Part shown: one piece after another, positions 15,633 to 22,769 of the stretch
How positions within the stretch are numbered: position 1 is the first letter of the stretch
Layout: each line of letters opens with the position of its first letter
Source: a virus
Taxonomy: Duplodnaviria > Caudoviricetes
Strand: one strand, 5' to 3'
Virus record (IMG/VR): IMGVR_UViG_2898902220_000006
Span: 20,854 to 84,853 of that record
DNA length: 64,000 bases
The notes under the pieces: generated by a model
Told to the model about the DNA's origin: nothing
Databases searched by the model: none
Seen by the model: the letters and a program-made list of their open reading frames with translations, nothing else
Translations under genes and position numbers: made by a program

Positions 15633-16688
15633 GTGTATGAGATAATAACGGATGAGCTTATAATTGCTCATACAAACGAAACGGAATACAAAACCTTTAT
15701 CGGAAATAAAAAGAATGAAGCATTACAGTCTAGAATGATTGTCATGCCAGTTCCTTACAATCTGCGGGTAGCAGAAGAAGAAAAGATTTATGATAAATTA
15801 ATTAAGCAATCTGATTTAGGCCATGTTCATATTGCTCCACATGCGCTATATACGGCGGCCATTTTTTCTATTTTAACCCGTTTAAAAGAGTCCAAGAAAC
15901 AAGGCGCTGATCTATTAAAGAAATTACGTTTGTATAATGGTGAATCGGTTGAAGGCTTCAAAGGCTCTGACATCGAGGAATTACGTAATGAGCATGTGGA
16001 TGAGGGAATGTCTGGAATTGATCCTCGTTATGTCATAAACCGGATTTCCAGTGCACTCATTCGTCGTGATACTGAGTCTATTAATGCCTTGGATATTTTG
16101 CGGGCATTAAAAGAAGGGCTCGATCAGCATGCTTCCATTAGCAAGGAACAGCGAGAGCGTTACTTAAATTTCATCTCTATCGCACGTAAAGAGTACGATG
16201 AGATTGCGAAAAAAGAAGTTCAGAAGGCTTTTGTGTACAGCTATGAGGAATCAGCTAAAACCATGATGGATAATTATCTGGATAATGTTGAGGCGTATTG
16301 CAACTCTAACCGCTTACGTGATCCAGTAACAGGTGAAGAATTGGAACCAGATGAACGTCTCATGCGGTCTATTGAAGAGCAGATTGGTATTTCCGAAAAT
16401 GCCAAACGTGCATTCCGTGAAGAGATTCTTATTCGAATATCAGCTTATGCGCGTAAAGGTAAACGTTTTGACTACAACACGCATGATCGTCTGCGGGAAG
16501 CGATTGAGAAAAAATTATTTGCAGATTTAAAAGATGTGGTTAAAATAACAACCTCCACGAAAACACCAGATGAGCATCAATTGAAGAAAGTGAATGAAGT
16601 GACACGTCGTTTGGTTGAAGAACACGGATATACGCCAATTTCAGCAAATGAACTGCTGCGTTATGTGGGTAGTTTGCTGAATCGATAG
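15633..16688 (+). pseudogene. prkA: 3' part of the split sporulation gene prkA (YeaG family)
   Basis: DELIIAHTNETEY...NKKNEALQSRMIVMPVPYNL, EGMSGIDPRYVINRISSAL and [12 protein letters not shown] are PrkA-like; the N-terminal ATPase part is missing and the first codons (VYEIIT) come from the phage side. Confidence 0.88.
15634..15674. other. Putative attR of prophage 1 inside prkA
   Basis: TGTATGAG / CTCATACA 8-bp inverted repeats centred at 15654 (GATGA), where similarity to PrkA (DELI.AHTNE) begins. Confidence 0.6.
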
Positions 16689-16696
16689 GAGGGGGA

Positions 16697-17761
16697 ATGA
16701 TGAACGACTCCTCGTTTATCGTCTCCAAAGAAGACTGGTCTCTGCATCGCAAAGGTCATCAGGACCAGAGCAGACATCAGGAAAAGGTAAAAGAGGCGAT
16801 CAAGAAAAACCTGTCTGATTTAGTAAGTGAAGAAAACATCATTATGTCTAATGGGCGAGAAATTATTAAAATACCAATCAGATCGCTGGATGAGTATCGC
16901 TTCCGTTACAATTTTAATAAAGGCCAGCATACAGGCCAAGGTCAAGGGAATTCCAAGATAGGAGATGTGGTAGCTAAAGACGGTGAACCGGCTGATGCTA
17001 CTGCGGGCCAAGGTCAAGGAGCTGGCGATCAACCTGGTAACGATTATTATGAAGCGGAGATTACAGTAGAAGAGTTGCAGGAAATGCTGTTTGCTGAGTT
17101 GGAGTTGCCTAATCTCCAAACGAAAGACGAACAGAAAATTACCATAGAAGATATTCAGTTTAATGATGTTCGGAAAAAAGGTTTAATGGGTAACATTGAT
17201 AAAAAGCGTACCTTGATGTCTGCAATTCGCCGAAATGCACTAGCTGGGTATGACGATCTGGAGCTAGGTATCTCTATGGATGACTTGCGATTTAAAACAT
17301 GGGAAGAGATTGTGAAGCCACATTCCAATGCCGTAATTTTGGCAATGATGGATACGAGTGGATCTATGGGAGTTTTTGAAAAATACGTAGCCCGCAGCTT
17401 TTTCTTTTGGATGCTTCGCTTTTTGCGTACCAAGTATGAAAAGGTGGAGATCGCCTTCATCGCGCATCATACGGAAGCGAAGGAAGTGACGGAGGATGCG
17501 TTCTTTTCTAAAGGAGAGAGCGGCGGAACCATCTGCTCATCTGCCTATCGAAAAGCTTTGGAAATTATCGACGCACGATATCCGGTAAGCCAATACAATA
17601 TTTATCCGTTTCATTTTTCCGATGGGGATAACCTGACTTCGGATAATGAACGGTGCGTGAAATTGGTGAAAGAATTGATGGAGAGGTCTAATATGTTTGG
17701 GTATGGTGAAGTGAATCAGTATAACTCACTGTTGTATACACAAAACGGTTCCACTATGTAG
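16697..17761 (+). pseudogene. yhbH: 5' part of the split sporulation gene yhbH (YeaH/UPF0229 family)
   Basis: [37 protein letters not shown] and FHFSDGDN motifs; after GYGEVNQYN the frame runs into non-family sequence and meets the integrase stop. Confidence 0.9.
17696..17744. other. Putative attL of prophage 2 inside yhbH
   Basis: 49-bp imperfect palindrome centred at 17720: TTTGGGTAT/ATACACAAA (8 of 9 pair) and AGTGA/TCACT. Confidence 0.7.
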
Positions 17762-19328
17762 GGAACCGTAAGATAATTTCAATTTCAAATTGCTCTGGTT
17801 TCTTCCACTCTTTCTTGCGAATATAGATTACCTTCTCAATAATGGTTTTGAGGAGGTTATTTTTTTGCTCTGGATCATCTAAGGATTTGTAAGCTTGAAT
17901 AACCTTGTGAATTTTAGGGATAACCTGAGCTTGCATTTTAAGTCGGCTTTTCAATTGATTGATTTCGTTCTGAGACTTTTCTATTTCTGCCTCAAGTTGT
18001 TTTATCTTATCAGAGATGGTTTTATGTCGTTGTAAGAATAACTCTTCTGTATAAATTTTTCTTTCTAACATTTCGAATGTTGTTTCTCTCATACTGTGTT
18101 GCTCTTTCAATTCGGTAGTAGCTTTTTGAATATAATTAGTTAGTGCTGACATACGTTCTTCATTCTTATCTTTTCGTTTATTACGACTACTCAGTTCTGT
18201 TTGTGTCATTTCTTTTTGTTCCACTAACTCTTCTAAGCCAGCTATGATTTTTTCTTCAACCAAGTAAGTTACAATACCTTTCTGTATTGTCTTACATGCA
18301 ACATTGGTACATCTTATTTGGGGATTAGGTCTTTCAGGATTAACAAGCTGTGCTAATGTGCGCCCGCATACTCCACATCTTGCGATACCAGCAAGAGGAT
18401 TAGATACAGATGAGCCTTCTTTTCTAGAGACTCGAAAACGCCCTGTGTGAGCTTCATTAGCTTTAATAAATAATTCCTGACTAACTATTGGTTCATGCGC
18501 ATTGTCATGTCTAGTCCATAATTCTGGGGGGAGTCTTTTAGTGACTCTTTTTCCGTTACGTTTCGTATGTTTCTTCCTGCCCCATACAATGTGACCGATA
18601 TAGACTTCATTTTTAACTAAATAACTTATGGTAGAGTGTTCCCAGATATCTCTTTTCGAGGGAGCCTTATACCCTGCCTGCATAAGATACTCTATGACTT
18701 TAAAACGTCCATATCCTTCAGCCAGTAGCTCGAAGATTTTTTTAACAACTGGAGCTTCTTCGGGATGAGGATAGAGCTTTAGGTTTTCGTCTCTTAAATA
18801 TCCATAAGGGGGGGTTTTAGCGATATGTCGACCATCTTTTACTGCACGCCGCCGACCACCTTGCAAACGCTTATTAATCTGTTTTAACTCTTCACGAGCG
18901 ATGATAGACTTCACACCAAACAATAGTTCTGCACCTTCGGCGTTGCAGTCGATCACTTCTGAGGGGGTAATAATCAGTGTTTCAGAATATTTAAAAGCTC
19001 TGAATATCGTTCCTGCATCGATCATATCTCCACGCCCAAGACGATCTAAGTCCATCACTATTACGCCATCGCATTCTCCATCTTCAACGTTACGCAGCAT
19101 CTCTTGTGCTTCTGGTCTTTCCGATAGAAACTCACCTGATACAATTTCCTCAAAGATTTTTATAACATTATGCTGCTCTCTTCGTACAAGCTCCATTAGC
19201 TCACGTTTGTGCTTATCAAGAGTATCGAAGGGGATGCCAGTTTCAAGGGCCTTTTTTTCTTCTTCGATGTCTTTTCGGCTTTTGCGTAGATGGATAATCA
19301 CGTCAAGGTTTGTAGGTCTACTCATCAA
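17754..19328 (-). CDS. Large serine recombinase (integrase)
   Basis: HLRKSR catalytic Ser motif, [13 protein letters not shown] recombinase domain, CGVCG...C...C zinc ribbon, coiled coil. Confidence 0.95.
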
Positions 19329-19500
19329 ATCACCTCACCATCGATTATACACAAGTTTTGAAATGTACACATTGTGGGTTGAACGAAAGTAGAGAATAGT
19401 AAAATTTTTCATGTTATAATAACCAAGTACAATAGAATCGGCTCTCTCAATGGCGATCCTGGCTCATCCCCATGTCACAAATAGCAAGGGGGTGACGCTC

Positions 19501-19593
19501 ATGTCCGTATATGAAGCTCTTATGGTAATGTTTGCTTTCGGAACATTTATCATTGCTTTAATTGGACTATTTGTCAAAATGACAAAAAAGTAA
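19501..19593 (+). CDS. Type I toxin-like small membrane peptide, 30 aa (putative holin-like toxin family; not in ORF track)
   Basis: MSVYEALMVMFAFGTFIIALIGLFVKMTKK*; RBS GGGGGTGA; single TM with basic tail. Confidence 0.85.
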   Translation: MSVYEALMVMFAFGTFIIALIGLFVKMTKK

Positions 19594-19722
19594 GATCGCC
19601 ATTGAGCCGTGGAAAGCTAGACGATCTTACTCCGTGATTTGAGCCAATCCCATTGAGGGATGGTCTATTGTACAAACCGTAGGTGCTCTAACACCTGCGG
19701 TCTTTTTTATTATATGCGCTTG
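19584..19722 (-). ncRNA. Predicted cis-antisense antitoxin RNA
   Basis: Minus-strand extended -10 TG-G-TATTAT (19730-19738); terminator GTAAGATCG/CGATCTTAC (19590-19630) followed by a U run; overlaps the toxin mRNA 3' region. Ends approximate. Confidence 0.55.
19676..19708 (+). terminator. Terminator of the toxin mRNA
   Basis: ACCGTAGGTG / CACCTGCGGT hairpin plus T tract. Confidence 0.8.
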
Positions 19723-19914
19723 TACTTCTATAATACCATATTATAGGCATTCTGAAACAATATAAATGATTAGAGGAGGTAAAAAATTAATGTTTTATGT
19801 GTAGAAAGAAAAGAGAATGAAGAGTAAAATGTTAATGAAGTGAAAAAAAGATACTGAACGAAAGGAGAAAAGTTATAAGAGAGATTTTACTACTGATAGA
19901 TTGAGGTAATATGA

Positions 19915-20583
19915 ATGGACACTTTCATGTACATAATTTTAGGTAGCATCGATATTCTGGCGATATTAGTCCTGGCGTTCAAGATATTTCGCTTCCCTCT
20001 GGCGTGGAAAAAAGAGTTTTTAATCATATCAATCACAGCATCATTAATATCATACTTGAATAGGGTAATACTTGATATTCCAAATGTTGACAGTTGGTTG
20101 CAATATTCGATAATTATTTTGTTTTTCAGATATATGTTAAAGGTGAAGTTATTTGACAGTATAGTAGTAGCAACTGTAGGATATTTAGGCTTTAACATCG
20201 TACAATACAGTACATACGTAGTTATGCTCTGGACAGGGATAGTATCGTTTGCTGATGGACAAGCACTAACAAACTTGGGTACTTACCTAATACAGTTAAC
20301 AACTCATCTATTTATGTTTGGTGTAGCCTGGTTAATCTACAGATACAATCATGGATTTTCATTTATTATGGTCCCGCCACATGATGTCCATATAAAGATT
20401 AAAATGACACCTTTAAAATATCTAATAATGACAATGGTGTTTCTATCATCAACAACAATTTTAGTTGTAACAAATTGGATGCTTGCATTCAATGGAAACC
20501 CAACTTGGTTAGTGCCTGTTTTCATAATCTATTTAATTATCCTTATCAAGTTATTGGAGAAAAAGGAAATGACCAATGATTGA
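19915..20583 (+). CDS. Polytopic membrane protein resembling the AgrC sensor module, with no kinase domain
   Basis: About six hydrophobic segments; first gene of the agrB operon; ends with no HisKA/HATPase motifs. Confidence 0.7.
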   Translation: MDTFMYIILGSIDILAILVLAFKIFRFPLAWKKEFLIISITASLISYLNRVILDIPNVDSWLQYSIIILFFRYMLKVKLFDSIVVATVGYLGFNIVQYSTYVVMLWTGIVSFADGQALTNLGTYLIQLTTHLFMFGVAWLIYRYNHGFSFIMVPPHDVHIKIKMTPLKYLIMTMVFLSSTTILVVTNWMLAFNGNPTWLVPVFIIYLIILIKLLEKKEMTND

Positions 20584-21088
20584 AAAACTATCCTATTCTC
20601 TTGCGGTTAAGATTCACGATGCCAATCCCGATAAAAAAGAGAGTGTGGATGTCTTGTCTTATTCATTGTCCATTACCCTTAATTATTTACTAGTATTATT
20701 TTTTTCTTTATTGATCGGTTACTTAACAAATGAATTTGTTGACACAATTATTTCAATGGTGAGTTTTATTGCTCTACGTATTTTTTCAAAGGGGTATCAT
20801 GCAAAATCATTAACTACATGCTTTATTTTGACAACAGCGATCATAGCATTGATTCCTCATGTTCCAATGCAAGATTATCTGAGTGTTACTAATATAGTAA
20901 ACGTTTTTCTGGTGCTATTTCTCGCGCCAAATGGTAGATTCGAGGAAGAAGTAATCCCTCAAAAAAGAGTTTATTTACTAAAAGGAATTTCATTGATTAT
21001 AGTCCTATCCAACTTTATTATCTCGTCGCATATTGTGGCTCTATCTTTTTTTGCGCAATCATTATTATTACTACCTAAAAGGAGGTGA
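20576..21088 (+). CDS. agrB: AgrB-family peptide-processing membrane protease
   Basis: FIALRIFSKGYHAKSLTTC (R..SGG.H...C catalytic pattern); LAP in a later TM segment. Confidence 0.9.
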   Translation: MIEKLSYSLAVKIHDANPDKKESVDVLSYSLSITLNYLLVLFFSLLIGYLTNEFVDTIISMVSFIALRIFSKGYHAKSLTTCFILTTAIIALIPHVPMQDYLSVTNIVNVFLVLFLAPNGRFEEEVIPQKRVYLLKGISLIIVLSNFIISSHIVALSFFAQSLLLLPKRR

Positions 21089-21093
21089 GGACA

Positions 21094-21213
21094 ATGAATA
21101 AACAGTTCGCGAAAACAATTTCAAAGGGATTAGGTACTTTGGGTAAGGTTTATACAAAGCTTGCCAAAGTTACAATCGGTAGCCCGGTTGTACCTAAAGA
21201 ATTAAGAAAGTAA
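21094..21213 (+). CDS. agrD: AgrD-like autoinducer propeptide, 39 aa (not in ORF track)
   Basis: RBS AGGAGGTGA; MNKQFAKTISKGLGTLGKVYTKLAKVTIGSPVVPKELRK*: amphipathic leader and P..PKEL tail. Confidence 0.82.
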   Translation: MNKQFAKTISKGLGTLGKVYTKLAKVTIGSPVVPKELRK

Positions 21214-21223
21214 GAGTAGAGCT

Positions 21224-21592
21224 ATGGGGAATTCGCCAAAGTTTTTTGGAATAACGCCGTCGGGGAATAGAAGCGATAGATCAGCGTATGTAGAACTCTC
21301 AATAGATGACTTTAATTTCGTTAATCGGTATAACGATACAACCATTGCATACAATACGAATAAAGGGTTATTCTTACCTGTGAACTCGTTGGAAGGTATG
21401 TTCATTTGTCTTGAAAAATACGGATTCACAAACTTAGACTCAACGAATGTCACAAATCTTAAAAATATAGAAAGTATAGATGTTAGTCCATATGGGATCG
21501 GCGTCCACTTTCCAAACGGAATGCATACAACTGCATCTCGGATCAAGTATAAACAATTTTTAAAAGACTTACCGAAAAGGCCACCTAAATAA
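21224..21592 (+). CDS. Stand-alone LytTR DNA-binding protein (no receiver domain)
   Basis: GF..LD.TNVTNLKNI..ID...V.F......SR pattern; only 122 aa. Confidence 0.8.
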   Translation: MGNSPKFFGITPSGNRSDRSAYVELSIDDFNFVNRYNDTTIAYNTNKGLFLPVNSLEGMFICLEKYGFTNLDSTNVTNLKNIESIDVSPYGIGVHFPNGMHTTASRIKYKQFLKDLPKRPPK

Positions 21593-21604
21593 GGTGGTTT
21601 TTTT
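21580..21604 (+). terminator. Terminator closing the agr-like operon
   Basis: GCCACCT / AGGTGGT hairpin plus T tract. Confidence 0.8.
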
Positions 21605-21865
21605 GTGTCTTTTATTCAATGTTTTAAGTGGGGTATTATACATCAGGATAATGCAAAAGTAAAGTTAAATTGACCTAGGGGTCTATTGACACTTAACAAT
21701 CGCAAGATTCGACAAAAAACTAACTTTTTAGATGGTACATTTTTTAAAGAAATAAAAATTCATTCATTATCACTTTAAATAAATTAAAATTACGAATCAT
21801 TACTCAGCGTTCTATCTGTAAGAGCAAGAATGTAGCGATTTTATTTTCCGCTGGAGGTGCGTGTT

Positions 21866-22010: not shown

Positions 22011-22394
22011 CTAATTATCTATCTCTGATTTAAAGGCTTCTAGAAGCTCTTTTACTAAATGCTTTTTGTTTGGAGGTAGGTTACGGATTAGATTGATAAT
22101 ATTTTTGTCTTCTTCAGAAAGAGTCGGGTCATTAATGGTAGAGATAAATGGATCAGTTATATCTGTACTGCATTTTTCATTAGTTCTTCCTAATAAGTAG
22201 TCAACAGAAACATTAAAGAAATCAGCTATTTTTTCTAATCGTTCATGCCTTGGCAAACTTTGATCTGATGATTCTAATCTTCTGATTGTAGACTCGGGTA
22301 TGTCTAAAGCTCTAGCTAATTCTTCTTGTGTTATCATTTTTTCTGCTCTTAATTCTTTTAAACGTTTTTTAAAAATCATAGATATCACGCTCAT
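22011..22394 (-). CDS. Prophage 2 CI-like XRE repressor (switch A)
   Basis: RLKELRAEKMITQEELARAL HTH; VSVDYLLGRT. Confidence 0.9.
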   Translation of the reverse strand: MSVISMIFKKRLKELRAEKMITQEELARALDIPESTIRRLESSDQSLPRHERLEKIADFFNVSVDYLLGRTNEKCSTDITDPFISTINDPTLSEEDKNIINLIRNLPPNKKHLVKELLEAFKSEIDN

Positions 22395-22420
22395 TTCTTG
22401 ACTTGATTATACACAAAAAC

Positions 22421-22514
22421 GCTCATTTAATAAACGTTCAATAATTGAACAAAAAGATGTTGACATGCTCATAATTTGAACGTATACTAGCATTATAAAG
22501 TTCATTAAACGAGC
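22421..22514. promoter_or_regulatory. Switch A control region: four 15-bp palindromic operators and a sigmaA promoter
   Basis: GCTCATTTAATAAAC (22421), GTTCAATAATTGAAC (22436), GCTCATAATTTGAAC (22467), GTTCATTAAACGAGC (22500); TTGACA-17bp-TATACT at 22460-22488. Confidence 0.8.
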
Positions 22515-22523
22515 TAAAGGAGG

Positions 22524-22769
22524 TTGAACATGAAAAAACTTATACCCTTAGAAAATTTAATTAAAACGCGTCTAGGTTTAAAGTTGACGCAAGGTGAGTT
22601 AGCTAAAAGAGCTGATTTATCTAGAGCAATGCTATCTAACATAGAACGAGGATATGCACTGCCATCCCTACCTGTTGCTTACCGTATTTCAAAAGTATTA
22701 AAAAAACCAATTGAATATATTTTTTTTAATGAAAACGCTCGAAATATGAGCGGAAAACGATCAGCATAA
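22524..22769 (+). CDS. Cro-like XRE regulator (switch A)
   Basis: LTQGELAKRADLSRAMLSNIERG HTH. Confidence 0.88.
   Translation: MNMKKLIPLENLIKTRLGLKLTQGELAKRADLSRAMLSNIERGYALPSLPVAYRISKVLKKPIEYIFFNENARNMSGKRSA

Follow-up and report, generated by a model that had tools for sequence, protein, structure and literature searches.

The stretch of DNA analysed here (the window: 64,000 nucleotides, positions 20,854 to 84,853 of the IMG/VR virus record IMGVR_UViG_2898902220_000006, numbered below from its first letter) harbours a four-gene cassette related to Agr, the textbook peptide quorum-sensing system of Firmicutes. The carrier of the cassette is a prophage of Brevibacillus laterosporus. The cassette encodes a sensor-like membrane protein, an AgrB-type peptidase, an AgrD-like precursor and a DNA-binding protein with a LytTR domain only. 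To our knowledge, every Agr case studied so far combines a (thio)lactone peptide with a phosphorelay between a kinase and a regulator. On balance, the window cassette appears to be an intact, phage-borne member of a very large Agr-type family of Brevibacillus and Paenibacillus that is free of a phosphorelay and works by the steps proposed below. As far as the sequences tell, the chemistry of the signal and the mode of sensing are probably both new. The cassette comprises the following features:

19915-20583, plus strand: sensor-like membrane protein, 222 amino acids (aa), kinase-less, seven transmembrane (TM) helices in the AlphaFold2 (AF2) model
20576-21088, plus strand: AgrB-type membrane peptidase, 170 aa, with a PF04647 match
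21094-21213, plus strand: AgrD-like precursor, 39 aa, with an AGGAGG site and a C-terminal P-K-E-L-R-K
21224-21592, plus strand: LytTR-only DNA-binding protein, 122 aa, with a weak PF04397 match and without a receiver domain
21573-21605, plus strand: intrinsic terminator of the cassette, a 14-bp stem followed by a T-run

A preliminary description of this DNA had listed four genes with their own terminator between an integrase and a repressor, and all four genes were located there on the plus strand. The open reading frames (ORFs) of the sensor and agrB overlap by 8 nt. The ATG of agrD at 21094, 6 nt past agrB, is preceded by a strong AGGAGG ribosome-binding site; an alternative GTG start at 21085, 4 nt inside agrB, would give a peptide of 42 aa. 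The cassette terminator is also kept in related phages. Between phage copies, the ratio of nonsynonymous to synonymous substitution rates (dN/dS) is 0.04-0.28 over all four genes, and 0.07-0.28 for the AgrD-like peptide; therefore, the cassette ORFs are maintained genes and not chance ORFs. The same description had read the first protein as entirely transmembrane without a histidine kinase, and the LytTR protein as lacking a receiver. Both readings held, as HATPase_c, HATPase_c_5 and Response_reg gave no match in the whole 84.8-kb provirus record, and the LytTR match spans residues 23-114 of 122, leaving no space for a receiver domain.

The AgrB protein matched PF04647 at 1.1e-19. Its motif R..GG.H-x6-C (His75, Cys82) is present in every AgrB of about 45 aligned loci, in both peptide classes described below, and the spacing is that of the catalytic pair His77/Cys84 of Staphylococcus aureus AgrB. 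No AgrB column cleanly separates Lys-type from Ser/Cys-type loci; positions 79-80 and 119-131 differ, confounded by phylogeny. The PF04397 match of the fourth protein has an E-value of 0.003, which is below the cut-off. A LytTR match was found in 24 of the 27 aligned family members of this protein (best 1.6e-14), and the profile of this family aligns with an AgrA-like regulator in its LytTR half (hhalign 93.8%). AF2 modelling of the LytTR protein from a 4-sequence alignment gave a predicted local distance difference test score (pLDDT) of 44 and no usable fold.

The size of the family was explored with an exhaustive HMMER search over 1.84 billion representatives. This search revealed 143 clusters of sensor relatives, nearly all of 203-248 aa and mostly of about 220 aa. 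The sensor as a truncated kinase was rejected, since none of the 143 clusters exceeds 293 aa. For the genome survey, a profile was built from 71 of the 143 sensor relatives. The sensor family was found in 34 of 401 sampled Bacilli genomes, in 24 of 61 genomes of Brevibacillales (the order of B. laterosporus) and in 200 of 301 sampled genomes of Paenibacillales; a single genome can carry as many as nine copies. Across roughly 120 loci, the genes as a rule come in the order sensor, AgrB, small peptide and LytTR. Of the 87 short-sensor loci with a confidently called peptide, 63 have a LytTR-only ORF of about 108-143 aa within 450 bp and six a longer regulator, which gives 69 with a LytTR gene; in the remaining 18, a regulator was undetectable with the LytTR model used. 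The circuit without kinase and receiver is thus the normal state of a large family, and the homologues are not the truncated kinases that the preliminary description had named as the outcome that would count against it.

The longer regulators that were scanned are mostly tandem double LytTR proteins, together with one helix-turn-helix (HTH) and LytTR fusion beside a cassette (L004, on a contig with five sensor paralogues in a row), and two proteins in which a receiver (REC) domain is joined to LytTR (L091 and L110). The first two kinds are:

L099, 116-844, minus strand: tandem double LytTR protein, about 240-250 aa, as in the next three
L138, 309-1034, minus strand: tandem double LytTR protein
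L143, 1411-2148, plus strand: tandem double LytTR protein
L156, 1406-2155, plus strand: tandem double LytTR protein
L004, 1687-2235, minus strand: XRE-type HTH fused to LytTR

The AF2 model of the sensor, built from a 71-sequence alignment, has a pLDDT of 95.9 and seven TM helices. The sensor has no match in Pfam or NCBIfam, sequence and profile searches of PDB with the sensor and its long forms gave no relative, and the ESM Atlas returned unnamed Bacillota clusters only. Invariant or nearly invariant residues are S46, R50, D59, Q127, G147 and P154-P155-H156. According to the positive-inside rule, the N-terminus would lie outside and the C-terminus inside the cell. On this topology, conservation is 0.62, 0.50 and 0.47 in the cytoplasmic loops versus 0.42, 0.33 and 0.21 in the outer loops, a pattern compatible with a cytoplasmic partner that stays the same and a ligand that varies.

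The sensor profile matches, weakly but significantly, the first 210 or so residues of proteins of 406-450 aa, which occupy the position of AgrC:

L123, 2395-3645, minus strand: long sensor relative
L124, 2933-4174, plus strand: long sensor relative
L125, 2746-4098, minus strand: long sensor relative
L126, 2383-3603, minus strand: long sensor relative
L127, 2097-3332, minus strand: long sensor relative

When the sensor was compared by hhalign with one such protein of 416 aa, it aligned to residues 7-212 with 96.2% (E-value 2.4e-9, 200 columns). Short and long forms have in common an S-x3-R motif in helix 2 and a Gln in helix 5. The cytoplasmic loop G-F-S-F-x3-P-P-H-D is found in short forms only and is absent from the long ones. 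The window cassette shows the marks of the kinase-less family: its short sensor has the S-x3-R motif, Q127 and this loop, and AgrB, a small peptide gene and a LytTR-only gene come right after it. All five long forms directly precede an AgrB gene and a Ser/Cys AgrD-like ORF, followed in four of five by a REC and LytTR regulator; no regulator was found downstream of the fifth (L124). Its homology, at the profile level, to the membrane portion of these AgrC-position proteins bears out the term "sensor-like" that the preliminary description had used for the first protein.

The precursors were anchored on the invariant Pro of P-x-E-L, which lies six residues past the cleavage site in the precursors of S. 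aureus, Lactiplantibacillus plantarum and Clostridium perfringens. In the window, the precursor reads A-K-V-T-I, then G-S-P-V-V-P-K-E-L, with the C-terminal motif P-K-E-L-R-K of the AgrD type. Among 72 distinct precursors, Pro at +6 and Leu at +9 vary hardly or not at all. At position -5 the window precursor carries Ala, the peptide contains no Cys, and Lys is found at -4. Classes were counted in the same 87 short-sensor loci, which correspond to 65 distinct five-residue cores. In 31 of the 87 loci, position -5 carries Ser or Cys, the nucleophile that canonically closes the ring. Lys at -4 without Ser/Cys at -5 is present in 55; one locus has both, and none lacks both. Lys occupies -4 in all 52 distinct Lys-type cores. 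Only 18 of these 52 have a Ser, Thr or Cys in the ring positions, and thus no other nucleophile is conserved.

A ring K-x-x-x closed through N-zeta contains 16 atoms, the same number as a ring C-x-x-x-x closed through sulphur, because the shift by one residue offsets the three extra methylene groups of the Lys side chain. In the sensor tree, Lys-type loci do not form one clade: a Lys-Pro subgroup groups with the Ser/Cys sensors with 99% support, so the peptide class changed at least twice. These patterns make a lysine lactam a reasonable expectation for the signal of the family, and a slightly weaker one for the window copy, since Thr and Ser lie nearby. The cyclic peptide proposed in the preliminary description would not be of the usual kind, as there is neither Cys nor a Ser/Thr at the ring position, and the invariant Lys lies one residue later.

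Similar cassettes are present in phages Davies (gp45-48) and Emery (gp54-57), with 70-90% identity per protein to the window cassette. Both phages possess tyrosine integrases, while the window prophage has a serine recombinase. Single-protein searches for related loci gave none in genome contigs and one (L009) in viral contigs. The core K-V-T-I is common to the window prophage, this IMG/VR contig and Emery, and Davies has K-V-S-I; the sensors of the four diverge by 18-25%. The peptide, as read from these precursors, is a signal common to different phages of one host and not a private channel. Davies and Emery also carry an orphan second sensor upstream of the cassette, which is absent from the window prophage:

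L002, 4149-4808: orphan second sensor, Davies gp44
L003, 3297-3962: orphan second sensor, Emery gp53

The two orphan sensors are 80% identical to each other and 33-37% identical to the cognate sensor, and they could listen to another peptide.

The window cassette is the same entity as the cassettes of Davies, Emery and Abouo, which were described in one paragraph by Hargreaves et al. 2014 (PMC3901668) as an AgrB, a putative AgrD and membrane proteins without an ATPase domain. That paper mentions neither the LytTR-only gene (annotated as "peptidase" or "hypothetical") nor the distribution, the sensor homology or the Lys-type peptide. A functional study of this architecture was not found in our literature search, the coverage of which was incomplete.

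The genome of the likely host, G421, encodes an identical copy of the window cassette. It possesses six AgrB genes, each adjoining a short sensor, and canonical agr was not seen in it. Among its cassettes, the copy identical to the window cassette lies in the studied prophage, one lies on a phage-like contig of 60 kb and one among housekeeping genes. This host-chromosomal cassette has the core K-A-S-I, and its proteins are only 36-52% identical. The suggestion that the prophage cassette jams a host Agr system is weakened by this inventory of six short-sensor AgrB loci with no canonical agr seen. Another cassette of the same genome (L210 10558-11991, minus strand; G421:C1, about 4.47 Mb) has the core K-S-F-V and lies by genes for a SEFIR/TIR-domain protein, a tubulin/FtsZ-like GTPase and a C5 DNA methylase, a neighbourhood that resembles a mobile or defence island.

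In the prophage, the cassette is flanked by the following features:

17754-19328, minus strand: large serine recombinase, left flank of the cassette region
19428-19699, plus strand: type I toxin RNA of the BsrG type, immediately ahead of the cassette (Rfam RF01412; the 106 bits exceed the gathering score)
19450-19593, plus strand: Hol_Tox peptide ORF of the toxin locus (PF16935, 2e-13)
19676-19701, plus strand: own terminator of the BsrG-type toxin gene
19700-19914, plus strand: upstream region between the toxin terminator and the first start codon, presumed cassette promoter
21622-21705, no strand assigned: conserved block of non-coding DNA right behind the cassette, candidate target of regulation
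22011-22394, minus strand: CI/RstR-like HTH repressor, right flank
22524-22769, divergent from the repressor: Cro-like gene, next to the repressor

A small ORF sits between the conserved non-coding block and the repressor. Since it lies between the recombinase and the CI/Cro genes, the cassette is part of the lysogeny module.

The upstream region contains a TATAAT at 19729-19734, flanked by a 10-nt direct repeat at 19708 and 19739, and is kept in the IMG/VR contig L009 and in a second B. laterosporus genome (L095). After the terminator, about 85-125 bp of non-coding DNA are nearly identical in the window, L009, L095 and Davies, and the genes downstream of this block differ among the four. The block harbours a near-consensus promoter-like site on the minus strand (TTTACT-17-TATAAT, 21663-21635), oriented toward the LytTR gene, and a palindrome at 21673-21684. 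It also contains the 9-mer TATAATACC, which occurs a second time before the cassette, at 19729 in the presumed promoter. The motif of the downstream block is present once per cassette, in close relatives only, and the 10-nt repeat TATTATAKGC is not enriched in the window over shuffled sequence. Among the non-coding elements, the block at 21622-21705 ranks first as a candidate output or feedback element.

In the CI/Cro intergenic region (22387-22489), a direct repeat of 10 nt starts at 22387 and again at 22419, and there is an inverted repeat around GTTCAAT-A-ATTGAAC; these repeats are likely the operators of the switch. At the other side of the recombinase, the sporulation locus prkA-yhbH is present only as a fragment of 2.07 kb (15633-17761), which encodes the last 351 aa of PrkA and, of the 381 residues of YhbH, 1-343. 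The large serine recombinase gene abuts the break in yhbH. The yhbH fragment adjoining the element is 94% identical to B. laterosporus yhbH, and its 3' end was not found in the window when searched for as the right end of the prophage. The genome G421 possesses a second, intact yhbH 745 kb away. The element may be an intervening element in a sporulation gene, possibly with a second element in prkA.

For the cassette as a whole we propose the following steps. AgrB would cut the 39-aa precursor after the Ile of A-K-V-T-I by means of His75/Cys82, as the family motifs suggest, and form an acyl-enzyme. The epsilon-amine of Lys at -4 would resolve this acyl-enzyme and give a 16-membered lactam c(K-V-T-I) with an N-terminal tail, replacing the Cys/Ser (thio)lactone; the strict either/or pattern of Lys and Ser/Cys and the ring-size arithmetic point to this step. 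Once exported, the peptide would be sensed by the 7-TM protein, with its homology to a sensor half. The 7-TM protein would control the LytTR-only protein by direct contact, holding and releasing it by analogy with the streptococcal LytTR systems, and the conserved cytoplasmic loop of the short forms would be the likely contact. The LytTR protein may act on the cassette promoter, on the conserved downstream block or on both. In the prophage, the cassette would most likely report the density of lysogens of related phages, a reading based on the nearly identical peptide of Davies, Emery and the window prophage, and it may have a role in the choice between lysis and lysogeny. The orphan sensor paralogues of Davies and Emery, and the arrays of up to five elsewhere, are expected of receptors. 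Only tentatively do we extend these steps to temperate phages of Brevibacillus and, via the family, of Paenibacillus at large, which may use an AgrB-made 16-membered Lys-isopeptide lactam, a 7-TM receptor and a bare LytTR protein controlled by contact without phosphorylation, with a signal common to unrelated phages of one host.

Several results weigh against these steps. Thr and Ser near the window core could give a lactone or a linear product in the window copy. Foldseek with the sensor model returned nothing from PDB at an E-value of 0.001 or below, and a wide VIA-align search with the same model gave a best Z of 7.1 (Pex3), which lies within helical-bundle noise. The C-terminal half of the long forms has no Pfam ATPase match, its H-box His position is Arg or Lys, and a weak match to a DcuS/MalK kinase was found in only one long form. 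Homology to AgrC sensors thus rests on gene position and not on a proven kinase, and the long forms may represent a pseudokinase branch of Agr. The loci L091 and L110 pair a short sensor with a REC and LytTR regulator, which means that some members can rely on a kinase encoded at another place of the genome. Upstream of the presumed cassette promoter, no convincing LytTR direct repeats were found.

Alternatives exist for the signal, for the sensor and for the purpose of the cassette. The signal might be a linear peptide or a Thr/Ser lactone of unusual size, with Lys serving recognition or N-terminal processing. The core K-V-T-I-G-S of the window does contain Thr and Ser, with Thr replaced by Ser in Davies; a literature search with incomplete coverage found no natural lactam autoinducing peptide (AIP), and we know of no case in which aminolysis by AgrB was shown. 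This alternative is nevertheless rather unlikely, as Lys stands at a fixed offset in every Lys-type core whereas a Ser, Thr or Cys is found in the ring of about a third of them (the 18 of 52 above), no locus lacks both Lys -4 and Ser/Cys -5, and the one-residue shift keeps the 16 atoms. The 7-TM protein, in turn, might be a maturation, export or immunity factor (for example a leader protease, compare MroQ of S. aureus), with the LytTR protein regulated otherwise. Its invariant polar residues in or near the membrane (S46, R50, D59, Q127, H156) are possibly catalytic, the family has no kinase, and the gene always immediately precedes that of AgrB, in many cases so closely that the stop and start codons overlap. 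We regard such a factor as quite improbable, given the profile homology to the membrane half of two-part proteins in the receptor position, the lack of a CPBP/Abi protease match in Pfam, and a sensor tree that follows the peptide class; the orphan copies and tandem arrays without extra AgrB or AgrD also suit receptors better.

The reading as a phage signal competes with a lysogenic-conversion module, or hitch-hiking host quorum sensing, which would act on host genes and take no part in lysis-lysogeny or induction. Most family members are chromosomal, housekeeping genes surround one copy of the likely host, the cassette brings a promoter region and a terminator of its own as a moron does, and no LytTR site was found at the CI/Cro switch. 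Yet the cassette keeps the same position between integrase and repressor in phages with different integrases, the conserved non-coding block travels with it, and the peptide is nearly identical despite the divergence of the sensors, so that a module for host genes alone seems doubtful. A decaying, non-working remnant of a canonical agr operon would account for the two missing phosphorelay domains and for the LytTR match below the Pfam cut-off in the window. It is hardly credible in view of the low dN/dS in all four genes, the intact catalytic residues of AgrB, the same short architecture in two thirds of the sampled Paenibacillales and the very high confidence of the 7-TM model.

About two thirds of the sampled Paenibacillales genomes contain the phosphorelay-free variant, which is also the sole Agr type seen in the likely host. 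Lys at -4 strictly alternates with Ser/Cys at -5, and this pattern suggests a lactam autoinducer resistant to hydrolysis, which, if true, would represent a new AgrB reaction and the natural counterpart of synthetic amide-bridged AIP analogues. The cassette may also constitute a second communication system of phages, chemically distinct from arbitrium. The phages Davies and Emery and the host are culturable.

Similar to canonical agr (agrBDCA of S. aureus, Listeria, clostridia and lactobacilli), the window cassette possesses the His/Cys pair of AgrB, a multi-helix sensor, a LytTR output domain and a short precursor whose N-terminus is amphipathic and whose C-terminal tail contains P-x-E-L. Unlike canonical agr, its sensor lacks the DHp/ATPase half, its regulator lacks the receiver, its gene order is sensor-B-D-regulator, and the ring position of its precursor carries neither Cys nor Ser, with Lys one residue later. 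The cassette fails three defining features of agr, namely the ring nucleophile, the kinase and the receiver, and should therefore be kept apart from agrBDCA.

Arbitrium (AimR/AimP) of SPbeta-like Bacillus phages is also a phage-encoded, secreted-peptide system located in the lysogeny region. Its signal is a linear, unmodified hexapeptide, which cells take up again and which is recognised by a TPR receptor in the cytoplasm. It has no component homologous to the window cassette, and no TPR-type Pfam match was found in the four cassette proteins (AimR was not sought in the rest of the prophage). The agr3 locus of phiCDHM1, a temperate phage of Clostridioides difficile, encodes a kinase with an ATPase domain and no regulator (PMC3901668). 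Both loci are of Agr type and lie on temperate phages, whereas the window cassette has a regulator and no kinase.

The LytTR regulatory systems HdrRM and BrsRM of Streptococcus mutans, which signal without phosphotransfer (Zou et al. 2018, PMC6193735), also have a LytTR-only regulator gene beside a gene for a membrane protein. In contrast to the cassette, they have no AgrB/AgrD or known peptide ligand, and the regulator gene comes first. No sequence relationship was found between their membrane proteins and that of the cassette. Their hallmark direct repeats, linked to positive autoregulation, lie just upstream of the -35 element of the operon promoter; only the 10-nt repeat flanking TATAAT was found ahead of the cassette, in a presumed promoter. 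Taken with the likeness to agr, the cassette probably combines an Agr-like production end with a reception end like that of a LytTR regulatory system.

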